A DNA stretch of 64,000 nt from Alphaproteobacteria bacterium (lineage in GTDB: Bacteria; Pseudomonadota; Alphaproteobacteria; SMXQ01). Where the stretch lies: contig JBKBHI010000001.1 in assembly GCA_046297835.1 (NCBI GenBank), positions 391,354-455,353 of the forward strand, written 5' to 3'. This document shows, piece after piece, positions 7,293 to 64,000 of the stretch. The first letter of the stretch is position 1, and every line of letters starts with the position of its first letter. Both the position numbers and the translations under genes were made by a program. Below the pieces are notes generated by a model, which worked only from the letters and a program-made list of their open reading frames with translations, was not told the DNA's origin and did no database searches.

Positions 7293-7823
7293 ATGTTCGC
7301 GGCGGCCGAGGAGACCAGCGCCATGAGCGAAATTCGCGATCACGACAATCCGATCATCGCCGAAGTGGCGCGCAAGGACACGGAGTCCGCGGTCGCCGTC
7401 GCCGGCCATCCGATTCACGCCATGAGCGTGCATTTCCCCATCGCGCTGGTCGCCGGAGCCTTGGGGTGCGATCTGCTTTATTGGTGGACGGCCGACCCGT
7501 TCTGGCTGCGCGCCGGATTGTGGGCGGCGGGAGTGGCGTTCTTCACCGGCATCGCGGCGAGCCTCGTCGGCACCGCGGAGCTGCTGCTGGTTCCCGGTAT
7601 CCGCGTGCGCGTCGCGAGCTGGACGCACGCGATCGCCGCCATGACCCTGCTGTCCGTCGTCGGCATGAACTGGGGATTGCGCCTGCACGATTCCGCAGCC
7701 GTCTTGCCTTACGGTCTGGCGCTGTCCGCGCTGGCGGTGCTGTTCGCCGGCCTGGCCGGATGGCACGGCGGCAAGCTGGTCTTCGATCATGGCGTCGGCC
7801 TCATGGTCGAATCCAAGCGATGA
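7293..7823 (+). CDS. DUF2231-like membrane protein
   Basis: Polytopic membrane ORF divergent from coxII. The start could be 7263, 7293 or 7323. Confidence 0.45.
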   Translation: MFAAAEETSAMSEIRDHDNPIIAEVARKDTESAVAVAGHPIHAMSVHFPIALVAGALGCDLLYWWTADPFWLRAGLWAAGVAFFTGIAASLVGTAELLLVPGIRVRVASWTHAIAAMTLLSVVGMNWGLRLHDSAAVLPYGLALSALAVLFAGLAGWHGGKLVFDHGVGLMVESKR

Positions 7824-8309
7824 AGGTTTCGGCGATGCGGCGGAGCCCGCCGGGTTCGGCCATCACCGCGGGAAAAATCTCCTCGCCGATGTGAGGTTTG
7901 AGCAGGACGACGCCGAGGATCGCGCCGACCAGGGGCAGCGTGAGCCCGGTCATGCCGAGGAAGCGCCAAACCGGATAGACCTGATCGTCGTCGAACAGGC
8001 GGATCACCACGAGCCCGAGCAGGATGTGGACGATCACCAGGCCGCCGACGAGGAACAGCTTGGCCGCGAACCAGGACGTGAAGACGCCGGCCGCGAAGAT
8101 CAGGCCGATCCCGCTGGCGATGGCGACAAACGCGGCGGGAGAGATCAGCGACACGTAAAAGAAGCGCACGAGCTGCTGTAGTCGATATAGCGCGTCGCGA
8201 TCGGACACATGCGTGCGTTGCAGATAGAGGACGGGCAATCCGATCAATCCGGCGCACCAGAGCGAAATCGCCCCGACATGCAGGATTTTAAGCCAGAGGA
8301 CGAGGCTCA
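7801..8309 (-). CDS. HemJ/UPF0093-family membrane protein
   Basis: The N-terminus MSLVLWLKILHVGAISLWCAGLIGLPVLY resembles the conserved HemJ/UPF0093 start (WLKxxHIxAxxxWxAGLxYLP). Its start overlaps the upstream stop (ATGA). Confidence 0.5.
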
Positions 8310-42472: not shown

Positions 42473-43096
42473 CTATTTCTTATCGGCCGGCTTATCAAGG
42501 CTCCAGGTTAGGGTGCCGCGCACGATGGCCGCATATTTTTCCGGACTGAGCGGCAACTCACCACTGTAAAGATAGCCCTCGGTCTCCTTGCCCGTACCAT
42601 CGACAAGACGTGTGGCCGGAGTCTTATAATTTCCGGCCAGAGTAAAGCGTCTATTTTCGACACTGAACCCGTCGTTATCTTCAAATTGCAGTTGGAGGAA
42701 ATTGCCGTCCTTCTCCCAATATTTTTTCCAGTCGGGATCGATCAGATCCGCTTGGCTGATGGTCTTGACCTGACCCTCGATTTGAAATTCGAACAGCAAC
42801 GCATTCTCGCGGTATTTCACTGTGAGGGTAGGTTCTAAGCCGCGGATCGGCCGGACAGTAAGCACCTTGGCGCGCGATAGTTTGGCCAGTTCGCTTTCAT
42901 CGTAGCGTTTGAGCTCGAGCAGGCGGCCGCCTTCACGCACCAGGGTTTGGCCAGTTGCCTTGTTGAGCAGATAGACATCGCCTTTGACGTCTTTGATCTC
43001 ATATCGATCGCCACGGCCGGTGAGATCTTCGAGGCAGCCGGTCAGCAGTGCGGCGCAGGCGGCGAATGCCGCGAGTTTCCAATAGAGCATAGTCAT
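42473..43096 (-). CDS. hypothetical lipoprotein
   Basis: Lipobox LLTGC after the signal peptide MTMLYWKLAAFAACAA. The alternative ATG at 43090 has better ribosome-binding-site spacing. Confidence 0.45.
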   Translation of the reverse strand: MTMLYWKLAAFAACAALLTGCLEDLTGRGDRYEIKDVKGDVYLLNKATGQTLVREGGRLLELKRYDESELAKLSRAKVLTVRPIRGLEPTLTVKYRENALLFEFQIEGQVKTISQADLIDPDWKKYWEKDGNFLQLQFEDNDGFSVENRRFTLAGNYKTPATRLVDGTGKETEGYLYSGELPLSPEKYAAIVRGTLTWSLDKPADKK

Positions 43097-43439
43097 CTCC
43101 CCGGTTGACTGGGGCAGCGGCCCCATGGTCCTAGTATCGCGAGGGGAGGCGAGGCAGTCGAGCGCAAGGGGAGTGGGGAGCGATGCCAGATTGGCTTTCC
43201 GTAACGTCCGTTCTGCGGTCGTCGGTGCGCGCGGCGCCGGTGCTTCGCAAATCCAAAGAGTTAGATGTCGGAAGGGGTTAGCTGGTAGGCATGGCGACTG
43301 ACATGTCTCGGCATCCTTGCGCGTGGCCCTTCCAAACCCTCTGCCATTGCAGATGACAGAGCGCAGCGTTATGCGCGATTTGCGCATCAATTGCCCCGTG
43401 CAGCCCGTATCCGCTTGGTTAAGATGGGAGGGACCATTC

Positions 43440-43455
43440 GGGGGGGGGGGGGGGG
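43440..43455. repeat. 16-nt homopolymeric G tract (poly-C on the minus strand)
   Basis: Read directly at the junction between the metal module and the AT-rich module, about 100 bp 3' of the HTH-ImmA gene stop. Confidence 0.9.
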
Positions 43456-43558
43456 ATGGCACATGTGGCGGCACACAAAAAACCAACCACTCAACACCCC
43501 TTGCGCTGTGTGCAAACAGGCTTGCGTTTGGGTTATTATGCTCGCTTATGTCTGAGAG

Positions 43559-44734
43559 TTAGTTTTGCTGCATCTCAAATAAGGTACGCAAAGTACCGCG
43601 CTCAATTAGGCGTGAGAATTTTTTGTAATTTTGATGATCTCGTTGCCAGCGGCCTGCGACTATCGCGATGTTTACTCGGGCCTGAATCGATAATGAAGTT
43701 ACGTCGTCCTGACTCATGTCGTGAGCCCAATGAAATTGAGAAAGGATGTCGCTCGGAATAAGCGACTCTTGTGCCAAGAGATCGGCTTCACGCTCATAGG
43801 CATCATCACTATTGATTTCAATATCATCAATAAATGCTGAGCCAGACTCTCTCAGATAATCGTAATGCAGCGAGATGTGCGCCAGCTCGTGCAGAAGTGT
43901 AAACCAGAAGTTATCGAGGCGATCGTGTCGCAATGTGAGTCCTACGACCGGCCGACTTGCCGCGTCGACCATTGCAGCGCCATCGAGAAATGTTCCGGGA
44001 AGTGGCGGCAGTATCACGACACAAATCCCAAGTTTAGCTAGATGAGTAATCACGCGAGTAGGCCCATCAGTTCTGGCGCTAATCCTTGCTACAGACCGTA
44101 ATTCGGATGATCCGAATTTAGACTGTTCAAAAGTATTCTTAAGGCGCTGGTTCTCGCTTTTTCTGACTACTGCAGCTTGCCAAAGCAAAAGAGCATGCTG
44201 GTCTGTTTTTGACGCAGCACGTTGCGTTCTGGTTTTGCGAAGTAACGCGGGAGAAAGGTTTGTTTGAGCAACCGGGCTTAAAAAAGCATCTAGCTCTTTA
44301 GGCCCAACTTTAAAGCCCATAGAACTTAAGCGATTAAGTGCGGGAGTAGACTCGCTTTCAAAACTCTTATCAGCTCTGCTCGAGATAAGAGATTCGTAAG
44401 GTATGCCGAGGCCCTGATGTAGTGAGCGGATCATATCAATTGATAGTTGTCGCTTACCTGAAAGCACCTCGGACACGCGTGCGCGTGAACCTATAAACGG
44501 CTCTAACTGCTTCGGTGAAAGGCCGAGAGCATCCATGCGAAATTTTATCGCTGCGATAGGGGATGGGGATTCAATGTGAAAATATTTTTTTTCATATTGC
44601 TCGATGAGAGTCGCAAGGACCTCGATCTCATCATCGTAATTAAGATTGTTGCTGGCTTGCAGCAGATCCTTGATGCGACTCTTCGCGTCTTTCAGATCAA
44701 TTTCGGTGCGAATGGGTTTGATCATCGGATTCAT
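43559..44734 (-). CDS. HigA-like HTH antitoxin fused to an ImmA/IrrE-family metallopeptidase domain
   Basis: XRE HTH (LGLSPKQLEPFIGSRARVSEVLSGKRQLSIDMIRSL). HEXXH motif (LLHELAHISLH). Start overlaps the higB stop (ATGA). Confidence 0.75.
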   Translation of the reverse strand: MNPMIKPIRTEIDLKDAKSRIKDLLQASNNLNYDDEIEVLATLIEQYEKKYFHIESPSPIAAIKFRMDALGLSPKQLEPFIGSRARVSEVLSGKRQLSIDMIRSLHQGLGIPYESLISSRADKSFESESTPALNRLSSMGFKVGPKELDAFLSPVAQTNLSPALLRKTRTQRAASKTDQHALLLWQAAVVRKSENQRLKNTFEQSKFGSSELRSVARISARTDGPTRVITHLAKLGICVVILPPLPGTFLDGAAMVDAASRPVVGLTLRHDRLDNFWFTLLHELAHISLHYDYLRESGSAFIDDIEINSDDAYEREADLLAQESLIPSDILSQFHWAHDMSQDDVTSLSIQARVNIAIVAGRWQRDHQNYKKFSRLIERGTLRTLFEMQQN

Positions 44735-45021
44735 TCCTCAGCAACTAATGAGACCGTGAGGTCTGCTACTCGAATTTCGGTCAACAGCACTATCCCTCGG
44801 CGGAAATCCATGAGGGTTTCGACGTCGATGGCCGGGTTTGGAAACGAGAACACCACGATCGGTGGGGAGCGTACGTCGGCGTATTTGAAGTCCCTAAGAA
44901 GGGCATGCGTTGATTCCCAGGTGCGGCAACGCATCTCTGCCGCCCACGCCCGCAGCATTTCTCCAGTCCTTGGGTGACTTCGAATGAAGCCATGTAGCTC
45001 CATTTCACCTAAGAAATTCAT
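44731..45021 (-). CDS. higB: HigB-family (RelE-fold) toxin
   Basis: 96 aa located upstream of the HTH antitoxin (toxin-first order). The pattern ...HPRTGEMLRAW...FKYADV... resembles the HigB toxin family. Confidence 0.6.
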   Translation of the reverse strand: MNFLGEMELHGFIRSHPRTGEMLRAWAAEMRCRTWESTHALLRDFKYADVRSPPIVVFSFPNPAIDVETLMDFRRGIVLLTEIRVADLTVSLVAEE

Positions 45022-45035
45022 CCGCTTATCCTAAT

Positions 45036-45052
45036 GCTCCCATGTCGGGAGC
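45036..45052. promoter_or_regulatory. operator-like perfect palindrome GCTCCC-ATGTC-GGGAGC (copy 1)
   Basis: Read directly. Lies 14 nt upstream of the higB start codon, just before its AGGA ribosome-binding site. Confidence 0.6.
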
Positions 45053-45085
45053 TATTTTATAGACGAGTGATCCACGCTTGTATAT

Positions 45086-45102
45086 GCTCCCAATACGGGA
45101 GC
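45086..45102. promoter_or_regulatory. operator-like perfect palindrome GCTCCC-AATAC-GGGAGC (copy 2)
   Basis: Read directly. Lies inside the spacer of a putative plus-strand promoter (TTGTAT...TTTAAT) that would read into the downstream 3-gene operon. Confidence 0.6.
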
Positions 45103-45125
45103 ACTTTAATCCAGTGAGGTGGTTC

Positions 45126-45590
45126 GTGACGCGTTTCACCGTTTTTGGAAAGAGCCTGGATGCAAACGAGCAGCAGGCTTTAAGGAAATTCGCCGAGCAA
45201 GCAGCGGGCAAAGGGGATGAGGTTAGTTTTGCCGCGTCCATTGGCGAGCCCGATCCCTCTGTCGATAGCGAAGTCGTTCTGGTTTTGGGAACGGCAAGTA
45301 CGTGTGCTAGCGCCGATCTCGCCAATGATTTGCAGCTGGCTGCAAATGGTGCCCGGCGCATCATCTGGGTTTGGCCGGAGGGCGTAGGCGAATGCGAGCT
45401 GCCTTCAGTCGTCAGGACTTACGCCTATTCGATCATCGTTTGGAATGTGGGGAAGTTAAAGTCGGTCGCAGCCGACGATGATGCGAGGTGCTTTGAAGCA
45501 TCGACGGGGGAGGCCCTGCCTAAAGTCGAAACTGAACGAAATCTCTGTGCCGATGTTGAGGCCGAAAACCCCAAGGCTAAAACAAAGTGA
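45126..45590 (+). CDS. hypothetical protein, possible Rossmann-like (SLOG/TIR-like?) nucleotide-binding fold
   Basis: GTG start with a GAGGTGG ribosome-binding site; the annotated TTG at 45078 or ATG at 45084 would lie inside the operator. VVLVLGTAS...ADLANDLQLAANGARRIIWVWPEG is reminiscent of SLOG/LOG-type folds. Low certainty. Confidence 0.4.
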   Translation: MTRFTVFGKSLDANEQQALRKFAEQAAGKGDEVSFAASIGEPDPSVDSEVVLVLGTASTCASADLANDLQLAANGARRIIWVWPEGVGECELPSVVRTYAYSIIVWNVGKLKSVAADDDARCFEASTGEALPKVETERNLCADVEAENPKAKTK

Positions 45591-46219
45591 ATTTATTCTC
45601 TTACGTCGTAGAGCACGATCTTGGGTTCGCTCCGAATCCATTTCACGGATTTTGCACGCTTGCTTGTTGCAAGCCGGAGATCCGTAAAAAAGCGAAAGAG
45701 GGTGACTACATAATTGGCACCGGTGCAACAAGGCCGGGGCTTCTCGGGCACATCACCTATTGGATGCGTGTGGATGAGATTCTGACCTTCGATGAATATT
45801 GGAGTGACCGCCGCTTCCGTTACAAGAAGCCCTACATGGAAGGCACTACCATGTTGCGCTACGGCGACAACATTTATCACCGAAGCGGCGGTAAAGATTT
45901 TCAGCAAGAGGATTCATTCCACAGCCATGAGGATGGCAGCCTTTCTCGTGGTGATTTAAAGCGAGATACCCAAAAGACGGAGAGGGTTCTTATAGGGCGT
46001 GACTTTTCGTATTGGGGGCGTAACGGAATACTGTTGCCGGAACACCTGCAGTGCCTTGTGAAAAAAGGACCTGGGCATAAGTGTCGATTCACTGAAGAGC
46101 AGATAGCTATGTTTCATGCTTGGTTGAGCAATCAGCGTGAACGTGGCTTTAAGGGGGAGCCGGCTCATTGGCAATTTATTGGACAGCTCAAGCGCCGGCC
46201 TTCCCGGGCTCGGAGGTGA
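45587..46219 (+). CDS. Nmad2-like (nucleotide-modification-associated domain 2) protein
   Basis: The N-terminus MNLFSYVVEHDLGFAPNPFHGFCTLACCKPEIRK matches, from memory, the conserved start of the Nmad2 family. The start overlaps the upstream stop (ATGA). Confidence 0.5.
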   Translation: MNLFSYVVEHDLGFAPNPFHGFCTLACCKPEIRKKAKEGDYIIGTGATRPGLLGHITYWMRVDEILTFDEYWSDRRFRYKKPYMEGTTMLRYGDNIYHRSGGKDFQQEDSFHSHEDGSLSRGDLKRDTQKTERVLIGRDFSYWGRNGILLPEHLQCLVKKGPGHKCRFTEEQIAMFHAWLSNQRERGFKGEPAHWQFIGQLKRRPSRARR

Positions 46220-46222
46220 TAG

Positions 46223-47881
46223 ATGAGGCCTATCGACTACGACCAATTCGTTCGCAAAACCGATCAATATTCTTTGAAGGCCCCCAAGGAGCGTCATGCA
46301 ATTGCTTTGTATGGGCTTGTGGGCGAGATCGGCTCTTTAATCTCGGCCATAAAAAAGAAAATATTGGCCGAGGGTGGTGAGGCTGATTGGGATCAACCAA
46401 ATAAAGAGATCAAAGAAGAGATAGGGGATGTGCTTTGGTACTGCTACTCGCTTTCTCAAATCGTCAATGCGACATATTTTGATATTCTAACGAACGATAT
46501 TTCAGTCCTAAGACGCGAGATCGAGGGAGGCAACGAACGGGCTGAGAAAATTAGTGCGGCGCTCGCGGCGCTTGATCCAAAAAGTAAGAACGAATTTCTT
46601 TCAGCCGCGGCGCTCTTTCCTATTTCAAATGACTTTTCATTTGATGCTTACCAAGCGCTTGCATTCAAAACTGCAAGAACGGACGGAATAATCCTTCTCG
46701 AGGTTTGCTTGGCTGTCTTGCCGCAATTAGGTGCGGAGCTTTTGCGCTCGACACTTCCCGAAGTGGAGTTGACCCTTAATAAAAATATTGCCGACCGTGC
46801 GCCCAACGTTGTTTTGGGTGAGGTGGCTTGGCATCTATCTGCAATCTCAAGCCTCTATAATTTATCGCTAAATGACGTTGTCGATTTTAATTGTCAGAAA
46901 GTAAGTTTCAGATCGGAGAGGGGGAATCCTGCCTCTCTTCATGATGAGGGACGAAAGGAGCAAGAGCAGTTTCCTCGAAAATTTAGCATCACGTTTGTCG
47001 GTATTGAGAAGGGCCTATCAAGGATGTACTTCGAAGGCCATCGACTGGGAAATGACCTAACAGATAATGCGAAAGAGGATGATGGTTATCGTTTTCATGA
47101 CGTGCTTCACCTGTCGCTCATTGGGCATCTAGGCTGGTCGCCAGTTTTTAGAGGTTTTATGAAGAAGAGGCGTCCCGACGTTGATGAGGTCGAGGATGGT
47201 GGCCGGGCTAAAGTGGTTGAGGAATTGGTTATCAAGGCCATTCACTCTGAAGGAGTGAGTCAGGCGAGGGAATCAGGCAGATGCTCTGTTGGCACTCCGA
47301 TGCGTTTGTTTCCTGAGAAAAGCACCATTCCCTTCAGGCTTTTGAAAACCATAGATTTATGGGTTGAAGATCTCGAGGTCCGCCAGAACAGATTCTGGGA
47401 ATGGGAGGATGCAATTCATGAAGGTTGCGAGATTTTCTTTAAGCTGTGTGAGCATGGCCAAGGCACTGTGCACGTAGATTTAAAAAATCGCAGTCTGACT
47501 TTTGAGTCTTTGGTAACGCCTGGCGTTCAGGGGTTAACTGTTGGGCTTGGCATGGGAGTAGGTGATGCCAGCGCAGGAGGCATACTTACTGAGGTGGATA
47601 AGACTTTCGCAGAAGGGCTGTCTGGTCTCGCTCAGGTGGTAGCAGCAAAGCGAGCGCTATTCGAAGCACTGGGATTGTCGAACCCGCCGGTCTCAATGTG
47701 GTTGCAGGTTGATATTCGCGTGGTCGACGGAAATAAAATATCTGTGAGTGCCAGGGGCGACGTGCAGGAGCGCATATGGAGCATGCAAGTCGTCGACTAC
47801 AAAGCTGCTTTCGTCAATATGACTGATAACGTGTTGTGCACTATCGCTGCGATTGCAGATGTTGAAGATCTAAGAAAATGA
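46223..47881 (+). CDS. fusion protein: N-terminal MazG-like all-alpha NTP pyrophosphohydrolase domain plus about 440-aa uncharacterised region
   Basis: HAIALYGLVGEIGSL...EIKEEIGDVLWYCYSL fits the MazG/HisE EExxE/D signature. The remainder has no recognisable motif. Begins 3 bp after the previous stop. Confidence 0.55.
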   Translation: MRPIDYDQFVRKTDQYSLKAPKERHAIALYGLVGEIGSLISAIKKKILAEGGEADWDQPNKEIKEEIGDVLWYCYSLSQIVNATYFDILTNDISVLRREIEGGNERAEKISAALAALDPKSKNEFLSAAALFPISNDFSFDAYQALAFKTARTDGIILLEVCLAVLPQLGAELLRSTLPEVELTLNKNIADRAPNVVLGEVAWHLSAISSLYNLSLNDVVDFNCQKVSFRSERGNPASLHDEGRKEQEQFPRKFSITFVGIEKGLSRMYFEGHRLGNDLTDNAKEDDGYRFHDVLHLSLIGHLGWSPVFRGFMKKRRPDVDEVEDGGRAKVVEELVIKAIHSEGVSQARESGRCSVGTPMRLFPEKSTIPFRLLKTIDLWVEDLEVRQNRFWEWEDAIHEGCEIFFKLCEHGQGTVHVDLKNRSLTFESLVTPGVQGLTVGLGMGVGDASAGGILTEVDKTFAEGLSGLAQVVAAKRALFEALGLSNPPVSMWLQVDIRVVDGNKISVSARGDVQERIWSMQVVDYKAAFVNMTDNVLCTIAAIADVEDLRK

Positions 47882-48964
47882 ATCGGCAATCCGTCGATTG
47901 ATTTTCCATTTCGGTGGATACCATGGAGCAAGCAAAGAGCCAGCACTCGTATATTTCTGTTTAATTCGAGTGCGGCCGGCTATCCCTCCATATTCTGGAA
48001 AAGCGACGCGTGCATACTTAGAGATTTCGCAAAAAATATTCTGGCAGTCGATCAGCTTGAGGGCGCGTCCCCATAGCGATTTGAAATTAATTTCTAGATT
48101 AGAAAAATGATACTCTTGATTGTCCCGCATGTAGCGAATTACGTCGGCGGGATCGAGCTTTGCGTCGCTTTGAAAGCATTTTGAGATGCCGTCAAGAGCT
48201 CCGGGGCCGGCCATTACAAAGTCATCCTCGCTGAAATTTGTGAGGGTGCTGTAATTTAAATCAGTCGCGAATTGGTAAGCTAAAAATGGCCCAATCGAAG
48301 GTGCCGATAGGAGCAGTTTAAAAGCATCTGACATGCTTCGGCACTCGGACAGGCGAATTGAGAAACCATCTTTGATTAGCTGCTCAAGCATGCGCAGGTG
48401 GTTTTGATGCTTTAGCGGGTGGCCAAAAACATTCCCTGCGGATGGCATGATGTAAGCGGCGGAATATATCCGTTCACCCTTGGCCATATGCCGCGACAAA
48501 ACTTTATCGAAAAGATCGTAGTTAAAAGTTTCCCAAGTGAGCTTTCCGAATTCCGCTTCTAGAAGCTTCCAAGTTTCGATTTTGTTAAACAACTTGAAGA
48601 GGAGAATTCGAAAAAATAGATCGTTTCTCGAGTCCGGTAAATCGTCTCTGTAAATGACATCTCGAATAAGAAACTGGCTTACGCGATCGGATGCCCGATA
48701 CGTATTCGTAAACTTAAAGCTTTTTAGAATGGGGTCGTTGGTTAGTGCGGTGTTTGTCCGGTCTAAGCGACGGAAGAAAATATTCTGACGTTCTGCAGCA
48801 AACCGCCAATACGCATAAAACACGGGAGTAGTAAGAACTTTTTGTCCCGCAATCGTTATGGCTTCAGATGCGGGGCTGCTCACCTTGTTGCTGAAATCGA
48901 CATCGAGCTGAAGTGAATCAGCACTCGTTGATTTTTGCGAGGCATTGGTAGATTTGTATTTCAT
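47870..48964 (-). CDS. hypothetical 364-aa protein (candidate DNA-base-modification enzyme?)
   Basis: Convergent with the MazG-fusion gene and overlapping it by 12 bp. No confident family assignment. The idea of an aGPT-pyrophosphorylase / hypermodification-type protein is suggested only by neighbourhood. Confidence 0.45.
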   Translation of the reverse strand: MKYKSTNASQKSTSADSLQLDVDFSNKVSSPASEAITIAGQKVLTTPVFYAYWRFAAERQNIFFRRLDRTNTALTNDPILKSFKFTNTYRASDRVSQFLIRDVIYRDDLPDSRNDLFFRILLFKLFNKIETWKLLEAEFGKLTWETFNYDLFDKVLSRHMAKGERIYSAAYIMPSAGNVFGHPLKHQNHLRMLEQLIKDGFSIRLSECRSMSDAFKLLLSAPSIGPFLAYQFATDLNYSTLTNFSEDDFVMAGPGALDGISKCFQSDAKLDPADVIRYMRDNQEYHFSNLEINFKSLWGRALKLIDCQNIFCEISKYARVAFPEYGGIAGRTRIKQKYTSAGSLLAPWYPPKWKINRRIADSFS

Positions 48965-49593: not shown

Positions 49594-50901
49594 CTAAGCG
49601 AGCAGAGCTTCCTCGTCGCGCATATCGGTGAACTTACGGCCGGTCTCAGCGTGTACGGCATCCAGGCCCATCGCAATCAGCCTTTCGATGATGACGTCGC
49701 AATAGGCAGGGTCGAGCTCAATGCCGTAGCCGGCACGTCCGGTCTTTTCCGCGGCGACCAACGTCGTTCCGCTGCCGCAGAAAGGGTCGAGCACGATGCC
49801 GCCGCGGTTCGAGCAATCCAAGATAGCGTCAGCGACCAGAGAGACCGGCTTCACAGTCGGGTGCGAAGCGAGGTCCTTCATCCTGTCCTTGCCGAAGCTG
49901 TTGGCGCCCGCATAGGTCCAGACATTCGTCCGGTTGCGCCCGTGCTTGCCGAGCTCTACGTTATTGATGTGGGCGGCCGTGCCGTTCTTGAAGACGAACA
50001 CGCATTCGTGCTGCGAACGGTAGAGGGATCCCATCCCGCCGTTCGTCTTCACCCAGACGCACATGTTCTTCACTTCGCTATAAGCGCTTCCGGCGATCAC
50101 CATCTCGCCAAGGTGCCGCCAGTCGATGCAAATGTAGTGGATCGAACCATCCGTGCTGTGCTCAACCAGCAAGTTAAAGACGGTAGACAAGAAGCTCGTG
50201 AACTCAGGCGATGTCATTTCCCCGGACGCCATCGCAAACTCTCGGTGCTGAGTTTGGCCCAAGCCGGAAACGTGCCCCTGGATCGGGACGTTGTAAGGAG
50301 GGTCAGTGAAGACCAGGTCCGCCTTCGCGCCGGCCAGAAGCCGCTCGTAGCTTTCCGGCTTGGTGGCATCGCCGCAAAACAGCTTGTGCGGGCCGATGAG
50401 CCAAAGGTCACCCGGATTCGTGATCGCCGAGCTATCGAGCTTAACCGCGGGAATCTGCTCTCCGAGATTGTTCGAGGCATTCTGCTCGTTGATCAGAACA
50501 TCAATGTCGGCAGCATCGAAGCCCGTGACGGTCAAGTCGAGATCGGGGGCGATCTCTTCGAGTTCGATGAACTCCAAGGCCAACAGCTCACGGTCCCAAC
50601 CCGCTTGCTCAGCAAGGCGGTTATCCGCGATGACGTAAGCCCGGATTTCGGCCTCCGAGAGATCTTCGCGTCTGAGGATGGGGATCAGCGGCATGTTCAA
50701 GAGCTTGGCTGCTTCGACACGGCCGTGGCCGGCTATGATGACGTTCGTGCCGTCGACTAGGACGGGCACAGTGAAGCCGAAGCGCTTGATGCTATCGGCA
50801 ATCTGCTGAATCTGCTTCTTCGAGTGTGTTCGCGGGTTGCGCTTGCGGGGATGCAGATCTCCCGGGGAGCAATAGGAAATGCTCAGCAGCGACATTGTCA
50901 C
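49594..50901 (-). CDS. ParB-like nuclease domain fused to an N6/N4 DNA methyltransferase
   Basis: N-terminal ParB/Srx-like domain (RKRNPRTHS...IIAGHGRVEAA). Methyltransferase domain with DPPY (FTDPPYN) and SAM-binding FCGSGTT. Confidence 0.8.
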   Translation of the reverse strand: MTMSLLSISYCSPGDLHPRKRNPRTHSKKQIQQIADSIKRFGFTVPVLVDGTNVIIAGHGRVEAAKLLNMPLIPILRREDLSEAEIRAYVIADNRLAEQAGWDRELLALEFIELEEIAPDLDLTVTGFDAADIDVLINEQNASNNLGEQIPAVKLDSSAITNPGDLWLIGPHKLFCGDATKPESYERLLAGAKADLVFTDPPYNVPIQGHVSGLGQTQHREFAMASGEMTSPEFTSFLSTVFNLLVEHSTDGSIHYICIDWRHLGEMVIAGSAYSEVKNMCVWVKTNGGMGSLYRSQHECVFVFKNGTAAHINNVELGKHGRNRTNVWTYAGANSFGKDRMKDLASHPTVKPVSLVADAILDCSNRGGIVLDPFCGSGTTLVAAEKTGRAGYGIELDPAYCDVIIERLIAMGLDAVHAETGRKFTDMRDEEALLA

Positions 50902-51845: not shown

Positions 51846-52373
51846 ATGTCTACCGCGATGACCGCTTCGCCGTCGGCCCATTCCAGCATGCTTGAAAAGG
51901 TCTTGGAGCATCTTCTGGTGGGTGAAATCCTCCGCTATCTCTGGCTGCGGGGGCATCGCGATATCGAGGTTCTACGAGGTGAGGTGGACAATGCGGGGTA
52001 CGACATCGCACTGGAGGTTGGTGGCATCCTTCGTCATGTGCAGCTCAAGGCTTGCTTTCGCGGTGCCACGACCAATGAGGTCGGAATCAATATCGCTCTA
52101 GCTCGTAAACCGTCGGGCTGCGTGATCTGGCTGCACTATGATCCGCAGTCTTTGGCTCTGACCCCATACCTCTGGTTCGGCGGTGCTCCAGGTGAGCCTC
52201 TGCCGAGCCTGGGAGAGCGGGTCGGTAGGCATTCGAAAGCCAACAGCGAAGGGGTGAAGGCGCCGCGTGCCAACGTGCGGCTCTTGAGCCGCAAGCGGTT
52301 CGAAAGCCTAGCCACCATCGATGAGTTGGTGGCTAGGCTGTTCGGCGCGATCAATCTTCCTTCTTTGCCTTAG
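51846..52373 (+). CDS. hypothetical protein, possible PD-(D/E)xK nuclease-like core
   Basis: GYDIALEVGGILRHVQLK resembles a D...E.K motif. Weak. Confidence 0.35.
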   Translation: MSTAMTASPSAHSSMLEKVLEHLLVGEILRYLWLRGHRDIEVLRGEVDNAGYDIALEVGGILRHVQLKACFRGATTNEVGINIALARKPSGCVIWLHYDPQSLALTPYLWFGGAPGEPLPSLGERVGRHSKANSEGVKAPRANVRLLSRKRFESLATIDELVARLFGAINLPSLP

Positions 52374-52908
52374 TCATCTGATGCCTCTTGAGGAAAGCGC
52401 GACCAAGTCGCTTTTCCTTCGCCCTTCTCTTGCGGATATAGGTCGCATTCTTCACGGCAATCTGCTGCGCAGCAGATTCTAGCGCCTTGATCGCAAACTG
52501 GATGCGGTCATTGATATCTTCTCGTTCGTCGTTCGACTTGGCCTGCTGCATGTCAGGGATCAAATTGAGCGAATTGGCGATCAGCGAAGAGATTACGGCG
52601 TGCTCCTTTTCGATCTCCTTTTTCAGGGCGAGCAACGCGCGCGTGTCGTTGCCGTTCATAGCCTGCTGATACAGCTTGTGATTGAGTGCCTCACCGCGAG
52701 TCATGAGCACGGTCTTGCCGGCGATCTTGATCTCGACAATGCCCTTACCGAAGACATGCGCATTTTCGTCATAGCCCACAGTGTCGTGCTGGCGCGGCCG
52801 ACCATCCTCGTTACCGCTGCTGCCCTTCAACCAGCGTCCGCGCTCATCGCGTTTTGGCTTTTTTCGAACGGGGGGAGGCGGCGGCTTGGGCATCATGTCT
52901 TCGAACAT
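52351..52908 (-). CDS. DUF5681-like phage-associated protein
   Basis: N-terminal RGRWLKGSSGNEDGRP resembles the G-SGNP-GRPKG motif of DUF5681 proteins found in prophages. Confidence 0.4.
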   Translation of the reverse strand: MFEDMMPKPPPPPVRKKPKRDERGRWLKGSSGNEDGRPRQHDTVGYDENAHVFGKGIVEIKIAGKTVLMTRGEALNHKLYQQAMNGNDTRALLALKKEIEKEHAVISSLIANSLNLIPDMQQAKSNDEREDINDRIQFAIKALESAAQQIAVKNATYIRKRRAKEKRLGRAFLKRHQMTKAKKED

Positions 52909-57397: not shown

Positions 57398-59053
<1,656 letters not shown>

Positions 59054-59102: not shown

Positions 59103-60662
59103 ATGTCCGCCGCCTCCAGCGAAGCTCTCCTCATCCTCGATTTCGGGTCGCAAGTGACCCAGCTCATCGCGCGCCGCGTGCGCGAATCGGGCGTCTATTG
59201 CGAGGTCGCGCCCTTCAACAAGGGCGAGGAGGCCGTCAACAAGCTCAAGCCCAAGGCGATCATCCTGTCGGGCGGCCCGGCCTCCGTCACCAAGATAGGC
59301 ACGCCGCGCGCGCCCGACAGCGTGTTCGCGCTCGGCGTGCCGGTGCTCGGCATCTGCTACGGCGAGCAGACCATGGTGGCGCAGCTCGGCGGCAAGGTCG
59401 AAAGCGGCCACCACCGCGAGTTCGGCCGCGCCCATATCGACGTCAAGACCGACTCGCCGCTGTTCGCCGGCCTGGCCAAGGCGGGCGCGCGCGAGGAAGT
59501 CTGGATGAGCCACGGCGACCGCGTCGTGTCGCTGCCCGCCGGCTTCGAGGTCGTCGCCACCAGCGAGGGCGCGCCCTTCGCCGCCATCGCCGACGAGGCG
59601 CGCAAGTTCTACGGCGTGCAGTTCCACCCCGAGGTGGTGCACACGCCGCGCGGCGCGCAGCTGCTGCGGAATTTCACCCACGGCATCGCCGGCCTGTCGG
59701 GCCAGTGGACCATGGCGGCCTTCCGCGCCCAGGCGGTCGAGCGCATCCGCAAGCAGGTTGGTAAGGGCAAGGTGATCTGCGGCCTGTCCGGCGGCGTCGA
59801 TAGCTCCGTCGCGGCCGTGCTGATCCACGAGGCCATCGGCGACCAGCTCACCTGCGTCTTCGTCGACACCGGCCTGATGCGCGCCGGCGAGGGCGAGGAG
59901 GTCGTGAAGATGTTCCGCGACCATTACAACATGCCGCTGATCCACAACGACGCGAGCGATCTGTTCCTCGGCAAGCTCGCCGGCGTGGCCGACCCCGAGC
60001 ATAAGCGCAAGATCATCGGCGCGACCTTCATCGACGTGTTCGAGGCCGAGGCCAAGAAGGTCGGCGGCGCGGAATTCCTGGCGCAGGGCACGCTCTACCC
60101 GGACGTGATCGAGTCCGTCTCCTTCGCCGGCGGCACGAACGTCACCATCAAGTCGCACCACAATGTCGGCGGCCTGCCGGCGCGCATGAACATGAAGCTG
60201 GTCGAGCCGTTGCGCGACCTGTTCAAGGACGAGGTGCGCGCATTGGGTCGCGAGATGGGCATGCCCGAAACGCTGGTCGGCCGCCACCCGTTCCCGGGCC
60301 CGGGCCTCGCCATCCGCGTGCCGGGCGACATCACCCGCGAGAAGCTCGACCTGCTCCGCAAGGCCGACACGATCTATCTCGACGAGATCCGCAAGGCCGG
60401 CCTCTACGACACGATCTGGCAAGCTTTCGCCGTGCTGCTGCCGGTCCGCACCGTCGGCGTCATGGGTGACGAGCGCAGCTACGACTACGCCCTGGCCCTG
60501 CGCGCCGTGACCTCGACCGACGGCATGACGGCGGACTACTACCCGTTCGAGCACAGCTTCCTCGGCCGCGTCGCCAACCGCATCATCAACGAAGTGCGCG
60601 GCATCAACCGCGTCACCTACGACATCACCAGCAAGCCGCCGGGCACGATCGAGTGGGAGTGA
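59103..60662 (+). CDS. guaA: GMP synthase (glutamine-hydrolysing)
   Basis: GATase domain (GICYGEQ, H...E). ATP-PPase SGGVDSSV. C-terminal dimerisation domain ending ...PPGTIEWE. Confidence 0.9.
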
Positions 60663-60767
60663 GCGACCTTTCGGCATTTAAATAAGTGCTGAAGACATTC
60701 TAAAATCGCCAGTATTATTACAAATACGTCTCCAGCTTCATCGACAACTCGATTGATCTGATAGCCG

Positions 60768-61907
60768 ATGGCCGAGCAAATTCCCATAACTCCAGCGCTT
60801 CTCACTTGGGCGCGTGAGCGTGCCGGCTTGAGCCCAGATGAAGCCGCACAAAAGTTTAAGCGCTTTGCCGACTGGGAGGCTGGGATATCATTTCCAACAT
60901 ATTCCCAGCTTGAGCAAATCTCTGACACGCTGAAGGTACCAATTGCGGTTTTTTTCTTTCCAGAACCGCCTCAAGTACCGCCTATCGCTGAAACATTCCG
61001 TACTTTGCCCGATGCCGAATTGGCTTTGTTGCCAAGTCGGCTTCGTATGCTGCTTCGCAAGGCGAAGGCTATGCAACTTAATCTGTGGGAATTAACACAA
61101 GGTCGCAATCCGGCAGAAAAACTTATTACTCGTGATTTGGCTTTCCCGGCTGAAGTTGACATCGCGACTATGGCCTCTGCCGTACGCGACTATATCGGTG
61201 TGTCAGTTGCTGATCAGAGGCGCTGGGGAGATGACGAAACTGCGCTTAAGCAGTGGCGGGCGGCTTTGTCGAAAGTCGGAGTTTTTGTATTTAAAGACGC
61301 ATTTAGAGTTGATGATTTTTCGGGTTTTTGCCTCTATGACGAAGTCTTTCCTATAATTTATGTAAATAATAGCTGCGCTAAAACACGCCAGATATTTACT
61401 TACTTTCACGAACTCGCTCATTTGATTTTTCATACGAGCGGTATCGATACGATTCACGATTCCTACATCCCGCGCCTTGAGCAAGGCGCTCGGCGAATAG
61501 AGGTTTTATGTAATAGTTTTGCTGCTCACTTTTTGCTTCCGGAGCAAGAATTTGCGGCTGCGGTTGTTGGACTCGAAGCTTCAGAAGCTACGGCAGAGCG
61601 CCTCGCGGCACAGTTTCATGTTAGCCGTGAAGTGATATTCCGCCGTTTCTTGGATCAGGGCCGAATACAGCAACAGCAATATGCGGCTGCGGTAGCTAGG
61701 TGGAATGAGCAGCGCAAAGGCGGTGGTGGGCCAGGTGGGGACCATTATTGGACCCAGTTAACTTATCTTGGGCGCGACTATGTATCGCTTGCTTTGCGGC
61801 AGTTTCATCAAAATCGAATCGATGAAAATCAGCTTGCAGATTACCTTAATGAAAAGCCGAAAAACGTCGGCGTGCTTGAAGAATACTTCGAGCGAGGTAA
61901 CGCATAA
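60768..61907 (+). CDS. HTH (XRE) plus ImmA/IrrE-family metallopeptidase regulator
   Basis: N-terminal HTH-like region, HEXXH (YFHELAHLIFH) and a conserved downstream Glu. Stop overlaps the next gene's start. Confidence 0.75.
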   Translation: MAEQIPITPALLTWARERAGLSPDEAAQKFKRFADWEAGISFPTYSQLEQISDTLKVPIAVFFFPEPPQVPPIAETFRTLPDAELALLPSRLRMLLRKAKAMQLNLWELTQGRNPAEKLITRDLAFPAEVDIATMASAVRDYIGVSVADQRRWGDDETALKQWRAALSKVGVFVFKDAFRVDDFSGFCLYDEVFPIIYVNNSCAKTRQIFTYFHELAHLIFHTSGIDTIHDSYIPRLEQGARRIEVLCNSFAAHFLLPEQEFAAAVVGLEASEATAERLAAQFHVSREVIFRRFLDQGRIQQQQYAAAVARWNEQRKGGGGPGGDHYWTQLTYLGRDYVSLALRQFHQNRIDENQLADYLNEKPKNVGVLEEYFERGNA

Positions 61908-62374
61908 TGTACGTTTTCGACACTGCGCCTCTCTCCACGCTATTTAAAAACTATTACCGCAATCGCTTCCCCACTTTGTGGGAGCGCTTTGACGCATTGA
62001 TTGATGAAGGGCACATTGTCTCTACGCGAGAAGTTTTGCGCGAGGTGAGAGACGGTGCTGTGGAAAGTTTGCGTCTGTGGGCCGTGGATAAGCAGGAGTT
62101 ATTTTTTACTCCGACGGCAGCAGAGGCTGCCTTTATCGCGGGTATTTATGGCGTCGCGCATTTTCAACAAAACATCGAACAGAAAAAATTGCTTAAAGGC
62201 GGCCGCAACGCAGATCCTTTTGTAATAGCTAAAGCGGCAACAGAAGGGCGTGCTGTGGTTACAATGGAATTGTTTAAACAGAACGGCGTAAAAATCCCTA
62301 ATATCTGTGGGCACTTCGGAGTTCCCTGCTTAACCTTGGAAGCATTCATGGAGCAGGAAGGTTGGGCCTTTTAG
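61907..62374 (+). CDS. DUF4411-family (PIN-like) protein
   Basis: The start MYVFDTAPLSTLFKNYY and the size fit DUF4411. It is the usual partner of ImmA/IrrE-HTH proteins. Confidence 0.65.
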   Translation: MYVFDTAPLSTLFKNYYRNRFPTLWERFDALIDEGHIVSTREVLREVRDGAVESLRLWAVDKQELFFTPTAAEAAFIAGIYGVAHFQQNIEQKKLLKGGRNADPFVIAKAATEGRAVVTMELFKQNGVKIPNICGHFGVPCLTLEAFMEQEGWAF

Positions 62375-62576
62375 GCTAATACTTCATCCTAGCGCCTTCT
62401 CGTTGTTCCCCTGCCGTAGCAGGAGCGATCTTTACAGTTGGCCTTCCAAGCCAGCACGTTCGCACCCTCTGGCATTTCCAGGCTCCCAAGTGCATTGCTG
62501 TTGCCGCATCGATATGGCGCGGCGCGCACAATCTGACTATAAGCACGTCGCATATTTCATTCGCGCCCGGACCTCA

Positions 62577-64000
62577 TGATTCGCCTCGATAACATCAGTA
62601 AGCAGAACGGCCATCAGATCCTGTTCATCGAAGCGTCGATGGGGCTGCAGCGGGGCGAGAAGGTGGGGCTGGTCGGGCCCAATGGCGCGGGCAAGACGAC
62701 GCTGTTCCGCATGATCAACGGCGAGGAGCCGCCCGACGACGGCCAGGTGTCGATCGATCCCGGCATCACCATCGGCTATTTCAGCCAGTACGTCGGCGAG
62801 ATGTCGGGCCAGAGCGCCGTCATGGCGGTGATGGACGGCGTCGGGCCGGTGAGCGCGCTCGCCGCCGAGATGGCCCAGCTCGAAGCCGCGATGGTCGATC
62901 CCGATCAGGCGGGCGAGATGGATGCCATCGTCGAGCGCTATGGCGAGGTGCAGGGCCGCTTCGAGGAATTGGACGGCTACGCGCTGGACGCGCGCGCCCG
63001 CGAGGTTTTGGCGGGCCTCAGCTTCAGCCAGGAGCGCATGGACGGCGACGTCGGCCTGCTCTCGGGCGGCTGGAAGATGCGCGTGGCGCTCGCCCGCATC
63101 CTCTTGATGCGCCCCGACGCCATGCTGCTCGACGAACCGAGCAACCATTTGGACCTCGAAAGCCTGATTTGGCTCGAAGCCTTCCTCAAGAACTATGAGG
63201 GCGCGCTGCTGATGACCTCGCATGACCGCGAGTTCATGAACCGCATCGTCGGCAAGGTCGTCGAGATCGACGGCGGCTCGCTCACGACCTATTCGGGAAA
63301 TTACGATTTCTACATGCAGCAGCGCGCGCTCGCCGAGAAGCAGCAGCAGGCGCAGTTCGAGCGCCAGCAGGCGATGCTCGCCAAGGAGATCAAGTTCATC
63401 GAGCGCTTCAAGGCGCGCGCCTCCCACGCCGCCCAGGTGCAGAGCCGCGTCAAGAAGCTCGACAAGATCGAGCGCGTCGAGCCGCCGCGCCGCCGCCAGT
63501 CGGTGCAGTTCGAGTTTCGCTCGCCGCCGCGCTCGGGCGACGACGTCGCGCACTTCAAGAACATCCATAAGTCCTACGGCAGCCAGCCGATCTATGCCGG
63601 GCTCGACTTCATGGTGCGCCGCAAGGAGCGCTGGTGCGTGCTCGGCGTCAACGGCGCGGGCAAATCGACGCTCCTGAAACTGGCGGCCGGCGCGATCGAG
63701 CCGGACGAAGGCAATGTCGCCGTCGGCGCCAACGTCCGCATGGGCTATTTCGCCCAGCATTCGATGGACCTGCTGGACGGCGACGACACCGTGTTCGAGA
63801 CGCTCGACAAGTCGTTCCCGCAGGCCGGGCAGGGCGCGCTGCGCTCGCTCGCCGGCTGCTTCGGTTTCTCCGGCGACGATGTCGAGAAGCCCTGCCGGGT
63901 TTTGTCCGGCGGCGAGAAGGCGCGTCTCGTCATGGCCAAGATGCTGTTCGATCCGCCCAACTTCCTGGTGCTCGACGAGCCGACCAACCACTTGGACATG
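62577..64000 (+). CDS. ABC-F family ATPase (partial, runs off the window)
   Basis: Manual translation from ATG 62577: MIRLDNISKQ...GPNGAGKTTLFRM...LSGGWKMRVALARIL...LLDEPSNHLD, followed by a second Walker A (GVNGAGKSTLLKL). No stop before the window end. Not in the ORF track because it is open-ended. Confidence 0.8.

Follow-up and report, generated by a model that had tools for sequence, protein, structure and literature searches.

In a 64,000-nucleotide stretch (the window) of contig JBKBHI010000001.1, from the Alphaproteobacteria bacterium assembly GCA_046297835.1, two overlapping genes form an AT-rich islet between guaA and the gene for an ABC-F family ATPase. We propose that this islet is probably a self-contained, horizontally acquired type II toxin-antitoxin (TA) operon of the VapBC52 type, in which the first open reading frame (ORF A) encodes the antitoxin and the second (ORF B) the toxin. 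Judged by profile and pairwise alignment, the encoded proteins are predicted distant, colinear orthologs of VapB52 and VapC52 of Mycobacterium tuberculosis. The original prediction for this locus, made from the letters of the DNA, had read the pair as a TA-like or abortive-infection conflict module. That reading holds, given the domain calls, the overlapping operon, the compositional islet and the profile matches to VapBC52. Its statement that the function of such pairs is not experimentally settled is out of date, as the M. tuberculosis pair Rv2515c/Rv2514c was validated as a TA system in 2019 (PMC6504116) and its structure and mechanism were published in June 2026 (PMC13273310).

Similarity of the two proteins to VapBC52

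A profile built from 35 homologs of ORF A matched a single PDB chain from end to end, namely 9vzy_A, deposited as "HTH cro/C1-type domain-containing protein" (E = 1.7e-40; positions 7-372 against residues 2-385). The next matches were far weaker and were confined to the peptidase core, with IrrE/PprI at E = 3e-7 to 5e-7 and CapP at 2.6e-4. A second profile, built from 33 homologs of ORF B, matched 9vzy_D (E = 2.4e-19) and 9vzz_A (E = 3.3e-18; "DUF4411 family protein"). Entries 9VZY (complex) and 9VZZ (toxin) are structures of M. tuberculosis VapBC52, in which Rv2515c is the antitoxin and Rv2514c the toxin (Singh et al., Nucleic Acids Research, June 2026; PMC13273310). By BLASTP, the antitoxin was 29% identical to its M. 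tuberculosis counterpart along its full length (392 columns), and the toxin 35% identical.

The domain content of ORF A is consistent with this assignment. Pfam places Peptidase_M78 (IrrE N-terminal-like) at amino acids (aa) 169-293 (66.3 bits, E = 3e-18) and a sub-threshold HTH_31 match at aa 11-58 (20.6 bits, cut-off 27). The N-terminal helix-turn-helix (HTH) is also indicated by a match of the ORF A profile to the controller protein C.Csp231I (3lfp; E = 7e-6, positions 13-93), and a precomputed HTH_3 assignment is attached to many close homologs. The HEXXH metallopeptidase with an HTH that the original prediction had named is thus recovered, its motif intact as H214-E-L-A-H218 within Peptidase_M78, with the HTH_31 call itself remaining below threshold. 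In the linker, TFRTL is invariant in the 35-homolog profile, is present in 120 of the 121 clade members examined, and aligns with DFRRL of VapB52. An internal HTH motif of ORF A, HVSREVIFRRF, aligns with GVSAEAFLRRL of VapB52.

ORF B matches Pfam DUF4411 over the full profile (1-159 of 159; 106.4 bits), so the family assignment made from the letters stands up in a hidden Markov model search. Residues D5, E42, E46, D103 and E121 are invariant among homologs and aligned with VapC52, D5 corresponding to D6 of that protein. We predict from these data that ORF B is a DUF4411 nuclease of PIN fold with a complete acidic active site. Its AlphaFold2 (AF2) model is confident (predicted local distance difference test, pLDDT, 89.9), and the best Foldseek matches of the model are VapC toxins (E = 5e-4 to 1e-3; TM 0.5-0.6). 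The model also has a C-terminal helix (144-150) like alpha-8 of VapC52.

Operon structure, pairing and distribution

The two ORFs lie at exactly the coordinates first reported, as the ORF list confirms (Table 1), and the overlap of the ORF A stop with the ORF B start can be read in the sequence as a single shared nucleotide. In other homologous cassettes, the genes likewise overlap by 1 nt, or else by 4 nt. ORF A and ORF B are accordingly predicted to be translationally coupled through the TAATG overlap.

Pairing of the two genes was nearly complete outside the window as well. We retrieved 80 metagenome loci with the toxin, and among the 75 having at least 300 bp upstream, the antitoxin was directly upstream on the same strand in 74. 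The lone locus without an antitoxin (L148, 15-1771) has an insertion sequence (IS) transposase of 367 aa in the antitoxin position. Its DUF4411 gene has lost the normal start region and the C-terminal GW.F motif and shows read-through, as in a decaying copy. Such decay is what one would expect if the toxin could not be maintained without its antitoxin.

Alphaproteobacterial genomes and soil and water metagenomes are rich in homologs of both proteins (65-79% identity), with hosts that include Brevundimonas, Sphingomonas, Mesorhizobium, Phenylobacterium and Kiloniellaceae, and the homolog lists of ORF A and ORF B often fall on common contigs. The overlapping pair, antitoxin first, also occurs on plasmids of Rhizobium, Pseudosulfitobacter, Enterobacter, Bradyrhizobium, Methylorubrum and Arthrobacter. 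A scan of 1.84 billion 50%-identity cluster representatives found DUF4411 relatives in 3,326 clusters at E <= 1e-3 and in 1,143 at E <= 1e-10. The family is therefore widespread, and cassettes of near-identical architecture number in the hundreds in soil and water alphaproteobacteria. A phage origin was considered and rejected: despite matches to PHROG families, a homolog was found in only one of 50,697 phage records (unverified, 31% identity).

Both the profile matches and the pairing bear on another reading of the locus, in which ORF A is a regulatory protease of the ImmA/ImmR, IrrE/DdrO or CapP/CapH type that cuts a separate repressor and so switches on a mobile element, a DNA-damage regulon or an operon for CBASS (a signalling system against phage that is based on cyclic oligonucleotides), and DUF4411 is an unrelated passenger. 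The peptidase domain does match IrrE/PprI and CapP at the E-values given above, and the PADLOC capP model at 1.2e-21. We regard this reading as highly improbable, as the IrrE and CapP matches cover the peptidase core only, whereas the VapB52 match runs end to end. The DUF4411 gene is coupled by the 1-nt overlap and co-occurs at all but one of the 75 loci, and the neighbours of the pair here are guaA and the ABC-F gene, with no repressor, integrase, CBASS or prophage genes flanking it.

Table 1. Features of the islet and its boundary genes; positions are those of the window.
Feature	Position	Strand	Basis
guaA (GMP synthase), left boundary gene, outside the module	59103..60662	+	Pfam GATase and GMP_synt_C
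AT-rich islet, guaA stop to ABC-F start	60663..62575		GC profile; homology to closest relative (L001) ends at 60663
Predicted VapB52-like antitoxin gene (ORF A), 379 aa: N-terminal HTH, linker, IrrE/M78 zinc peptidase with internal HTH motif, helical C-terminal domain	60768..61907	+	Pfam, PADLOC, profile, BLASTP
N-terminal HTH-like domain, about aa 7-65, putative counterpart of the toxin-binding N-terminal domain of VapB52	60786..60962	+	HTH_31 sub-threshold; C.Csp231I profile match
FR motif F77-R78 within TFRTL	60996..61001	+	Aligned to VapB52 F75-R76, the proposed self-cleavage site
HEXXH zinc-binding motif, H214-E215-L-A-H218	61407..61421	+	Sequence; invariant in 35 homologs
E245, putative third zinc ligand, aligned to VapB52 E245	61500..61502	+	Invariant; 9vzy_A alignment; E..CN motif in 120 of 121 clade members
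TAATG stop/start overlap	61905..61909	+	Sequence; TAA 61905-61907 and ATG 61907-61909 have one base in common
Predicted VapC52-like DUF4411 PIN-domain toxin gene (ORF B), 155 aa; acidic D5, E42/E46, D103, E121	61907..62374	+	Pfam, profile, BLASTP, AF2/Foldseek
ABC-F family ATPase, right boundary gene, outside the module	62576..64000 (5' part, leaves window)	+	NCBIfam ABC-F models

Probable insertion at the guaA 3' junction

The GC content falls from 0.66-0.72 in guaB and guaA to 0.43-0.54 over approximately 60700-62350 and recovers inside the ABC-F gene, which starts with an ATG. This profile agrees with the 1.9-kb AT-rich islet within a high-GC core that had been described from the sequence. 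For the cassette as a whole, GC is 0.486, against 0.675 in the left flank and 0.655 in the right. A GC content below that of the host is characteristic of the family and not only of this copy, because in 33 of 35 metagenome loci (L091-L167) the cassette had a lower GC than the flanks (medians 0.565 and 0.615).

Comparison of guaA synteny across relatives supports the earlier proposal that the islet was inserted. None of 80 other guaA loci, taken from GTDB species representatives, has the pair at guaA. In the closest relative (L001; GuaA 93% and GuaB 92% identical), the DNA is 87% identical up to one base beyond the guaA stop and then diverges totally. Similarity at the DNA level to other cassettes begins at the antitoxin ATG, ends at the toxin stop and never exceeds 68%. 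Beyond its guaA stop, L001 has different AT-rich DNA (7561-8278, GC 0.39-0.51), and the contig ends 721 bp on; an ORF of at least 203 aa that starts at 7668 leaves the contig end and has no Pfam or PADLOC match. Only four relatives, all more distant, have the ABC-F gene within 6 kb of guaA; it lies 0.7-4.9 kb downstream with unrelated genes between. No empty site, with guaA joined directly to the ABC-F gene, was found among close relatives in the 80 GTDB loci, so we infer the insertion rather than see it directly. An exact-sequence look-up of GuaA gave no match.

These patterns suggest that the pair is a compositionally foreign, putatively mobile two-gene unit that was acquired horizontally at a variable guaA 3' junction, and in this lineage the junction looks, from the sequences compared, like a hotspot for foreign DNA. 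The guaA 3' end is a known integration site of some genomic islands, such as GIsul2. The present locus illustrates it as a variable site in this lineage.

There are no tRNA genes in the 55-64 kb part of the window, and the islet, which holds two ORFs only, has no integrase and no conserved ends. A search of 60400-62800 for flanking direct or inverted repeats and att sites returned short matches at chance level that do not enclose the islet, and the 3' end of guaA is not duplicated. The lack of an integrase, of flanking repeats and of a recognisable promoter, together with the different foreign DNA that the closest relative holds at the same junction, could be read as the mark of an inactive leftover, with no present function, from some larger island that had integrated at the 3' end of guaA. 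Such an origin strikes us as very unlikely, as both ORFs are full length and retain all family-invariant catalytic and motif residues, and the truly decayed copy at L148 looks different, with an IS in the antitoxin's place and a corrupted toxin C-terminus.

Two further observations concern this junction and its upstream gene. A Logan contig (L172, run SRR31360863) is 100% identical to window positions 60634-62717 and spans from 29 bp before the guaA stop to 141 bp inside the ABC-F gene, so that both of its breaks lie inside conserved flanks; these breaks could reflect strain heterogeneity at the site in the sample. Upstream of guaA, the guaB ORF is listed at 57446-59053 with a GTG start 54 codons ahead of its IMPDH domain (Pfam match from aa 55), and the real start is probably an internal ATG downstream of the listed GTG.

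Proposed mechanism and the missing cysteine switch

The characterised system provides a detailed model for how a pair of this kind may work. In M. smegmatis, Rv2515c rescues cells from the toxicity of Rv2514c, as validated in TASmania (2019; PMC6504116). VapC52 is a PIN tRNase that cuts anticodon or variable loops (PMC13273310). In the same study, the N-terminal domain (NTD) of VapB52 is HTH-like, attaches to the dimeric toxin on its outer face and is needed for binding; the middle domain is an IrrE-type zinc peptidase with an HTH motif; and a four-helix C-terminal domain (CTD) blocks the toxin active site, at an antitoxin:toxin ratio of 1:2 (PMC13273310). With single-stranded DNA (ssDNA), VapB52 undergoes HEXXH-dependent self-cleavage and loses the NTD, the site being probably the linker "FR" at F75-R76 (PMC13273310). 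The zinc ligands in the crystal are H216, H220, E245 and C229, the last being a "cysteine switch" as in CapP (PMC13273310). Overexpressed VapC52 protected M. smegmatis against phage D29, whose tRNAs it cleaves (PMC13273310).

By analogy, one antitoxin encoded by ORF A would clamp a toxin dimer, with its NTD on the outer face and its CTD over the active site. A stress signal would then activate the peptidase; in VapB52, ssDNA arising through DNA damage or phage replication plays this part. The activated peptidase would cut its own NTD-peptidase linker at or near F77-R78, and the toxin-binding NTD would be lost. The freed PIN toxin would be expected to cleave tRNAs in the anticodon or variable loop, leading to a stop in translation and to growth arrest or abortive infection. 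Auto-repression of the operon is typical of HTH antitoxins, and the NTD may have this second role here. The gate of the peptidase would have to work otherwise than by a cysteine switch, as discussed below.

Several observations weigh against assigning the pair to the VapBC52 type. Identity to the characterised proteins is only 29% and 35%, and because of this distance, the substrate, trigger and stoichiometry set out above are extrapolated. The AF2 model of ORF A is poor (pLDDT 67.8, with the linker and switch loop below 50), and Foldseek found nothing significant for it, the best match being IrrE at E = 0.15; for the antitoxin, the sequence-profile search of the PDB was decisive instead of this model. 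A consensus scan for a promoter upstream of ORF A gave one weak -35/-10 match (60677-60706), no better than shuffled sequences, and no shared palindrome or motif that might serve as an operator was found upstream of the seven cassettes compared. No PADLOC model matches ORF B even at E <= 1. In the M. tuberculosis system itself, cells co-expressing antitoxin and toxin gained no phage protection, only toxin overexpression being protective (PMC13273310). Lastly, the switch residue is missing: in the alignment with the clade profile, C229 of VapB52 stands opposite a one-residue gap, and none of 120 clade members, the window protein included, has a Cys between HEXXH and E..CN (121 were examined; the loop limits could not be set in one).

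This absence follows taxonomy in an eight-sequence comparison, in which the switch Cys was found only in the M. tuberculosis and Arthrobacter plasmid pSI-1 proteins and was absent from the alpha- and gammaproteobacterial ones. Without the switch Cys in ORF A, the gating of its peptidase differs from the published cysteine switch, and since the auto-inhibitory residue is not conserved in a large clade, the published activation model may not generalise. We tentatively raise the possibility, which we still hold to be on the doubtful side, that the proteobacterial clade lost or never had the switch and relies on a different trigger or gate, forming a mechanistically distinct variant of self-cleaving protease antitoxins. 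The gate may involve the invariant D227 or H222 in the role of fourth ligand, the availability of zinc (as for IrrE), or a release when the toxin or a phage protein binds. The absent Cys is the sole feature of wider interest in the cassette, and only its absence throughout the proteobacterial clade might be worth experiments.

Genomic context and defence-system scans

The original prediction held that such pairs recur in defence islands. We surveyed 149 flanking ORFs from the 22 loci with usable flanks, and the commonest neighbours were housekeeping genes, including ABC transporter components, DNA polymerase III delta', ScpA, FtsW, GidA, histidine biosynthesis genes and LepA. Restriction-modification, DISARM (DrmB/DrmMI), PDC-S35, integrase and terminase genes made up a minority of the neighbours. 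In the window, and likewise at the Brevundimonas and Sphingomonas loci, the pair stands alone amid housekeeping genes. The claim is thus correct only in part.

The PADLOC scan that had been suggested as a check was similarly divided. Run without curated cut-offs, it matched sixteen RmrA models to ORF A (the best with E = 9.6e-21 over aa 7-311); the capP model scores equally to these and covers aa 171-298 only. ORF A is thereby called weakly as RmrA or capP, and the DUF4411 protein is not called. With ORF B unrecognised by PADLOC, the module would go uncalled in a standard scan for defence systems.

The RmrA matches invite a stricter interpretation, in which the islet is a RosmerTA anti-phage system with ORF A as RmrA, ORF B as a new RmrT, and phage defence as the primary role over that of a generic TA. 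The matches cover nearly all of ORF A, and the D29 protection by overexpressed VapC52 in M. smegmatis agrees with such a role. In the NetFlax survey (2023; PMC10440598), ImmA-domain antitoxins (node D25) lie in the Rosmer zone and are associated with PIN-like toxins. We nevertheless find this interpretation unlikely, given that ORF A matches VapB52 far more strongly than RmrA, that neither RmrT nor any other PADLOC model matches ORF B, and that the contexts are mostly housekeeping genes rather than defence islands. RosmerTA is also more an umbrella than a true rival, and VapBC52-type pairs could be counted as a PIN branch of Rosmer-like systems.

Elsewhere in the window, a second protein with an HTH and Peptidase_M78 is encoded at 43559-44734 (minus strand, 390 aa) and matches the PADLOC model PD-Lambda-2_B over its full length (E = 1.9e-114). 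Kinship of ORF A with this gene was considered and dismissed, the similarity being limited to the HEXXH helix. A 336-aa ORF 72 bp downstream of it (42473-43486, minus strand) has no Pfam or PADLOC match, and on its other side lies a TIR-like ORF (45078-45590, plus strand; ThsB model, E = 3e-10). The region 42473-45590 looks like a defence cluster.

The adjoining region, 45587-48964, encodes Nmad2 (45587-46219), a protein with MazG and MazG_C (46223-47881) and a protein with a 5-hydroxymethyluridine (5-hmdU) DNA kinase helical domain (47870-48964, minus strand), a combination linked to the hypermodification of thymidine in phage DNA; its GC is 0.45-0.52. More broadly, GC is 0.45-0.63 over approximately 15000-53000, against 0.64-0.71 in the core, and this stretch also encodes, on the minus strand, a protein with ParB_N and an N6_N4 DNA methylase (49594-50901) as well as a DUF5681 protein (52351-52908). 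The whole stretch probably represents a large prophage or genomic island, and its end lies some 7 kb upstream of the cassette.

Comparison with known systems

All three alternatives considered above are less well supported than a VapBC52-type TA operon. The likeness to VapBC52 extends from gene order, with the antitoxin first, to the toxin, a DUF4411 PIN protein with the equivalent acidic residues and C-terminal helix. The antitoxins, of about 380-415 aa, are colinear end to end, with an HTH-like NTD, a HEXXH + Glu peptidase, an internal HTH and a helical CTD; the linker FR motif is kept, and H214, H218 and E245 align with H216, H220 and E245. Apart from the low identity noted above, the two systems differ in that the 23-residue disordered N-terminal extension of VapB52 is absent from ORF A, and in that the host here is an alphaproteobacterial metagenome-assembled genome in which the pair occupies a compositionally foreign islet.

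Canonical VapBC systems share the PIN-fold toxin, and VapC proteins were the top structural matches of ORF B, but their antitoxins are VapB proteins of about 8-13 kDa of the ribbon-helix-helix (RHH), AbrB or Phd type, in contrast to the 379-aa multidomain protease found here. The VapBC52 complex, at 1:2, likewise differs from the 2:2 or 4:4 complexes of canonical VapBC.

RosmerTA (RmrT/RmrA) and RipAB (Spr1630/Spr1629) resemble the pair in having an antitoxin with HTH and ImmA/M78 domains, and PADLOC models of RmrA match ORF A as given above. The pneumococcal RipAB model antitox_spr1629 of NCBIfam gave ORF A a weak 40 bits (cut-off 335). Characterised Rosmer toxins depolarise membranes or target DnaN, whereas ORF B is a PIN protein with no RmrT match.

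The IrrE-type core is also shared with CapP/CapH of CBASS (7T5T) and IrrE/PprI-DdrO of Deinococcus (3DTE, 8SLM), in which DNA damage or ssDNA switches the protease on. Those proteases cut a separate repressor and control other operons, while no partner repressor or CBASS adjoins the pair here; furthermore, the CapP-type cysteine switch is absent from ORF A, whose likely substrate is its own linker. ImmA/ImmR of integrative and conjugative elements and prophages differs similarly, the two-ORF islet having no separate ImmR-like repressor gene and no integrase.

The arrangement itself had been anticipated computationally. Makarova et al. (2009; PMC2701414) predicted "three-component" TA systems of HTH-DUF955 (COG2856) and PIN proteins, and their COG2856-Xre fusion with PIN is the architecture found here, as is the DUF4411.1 PIN gene directly downstream of HTH-DUF955 predicted by Matelska et al. 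(2017; PMC5499597). In those computational modules, the protease was envisaged as cutting a repressor or antitoxin, whereas the VapB52 protease is its own substrate. For annotation, a pair at present labelled "XRE family regulator / PIN domain protein" can now be named a VapBC52-type TA module with a testable mechanism. Predictions of the architecture date from 2009 and 2017, its validation as TA from 2019 and its mechanistic characterisation from 2026, and the pair described here is a new, distant addition to it.

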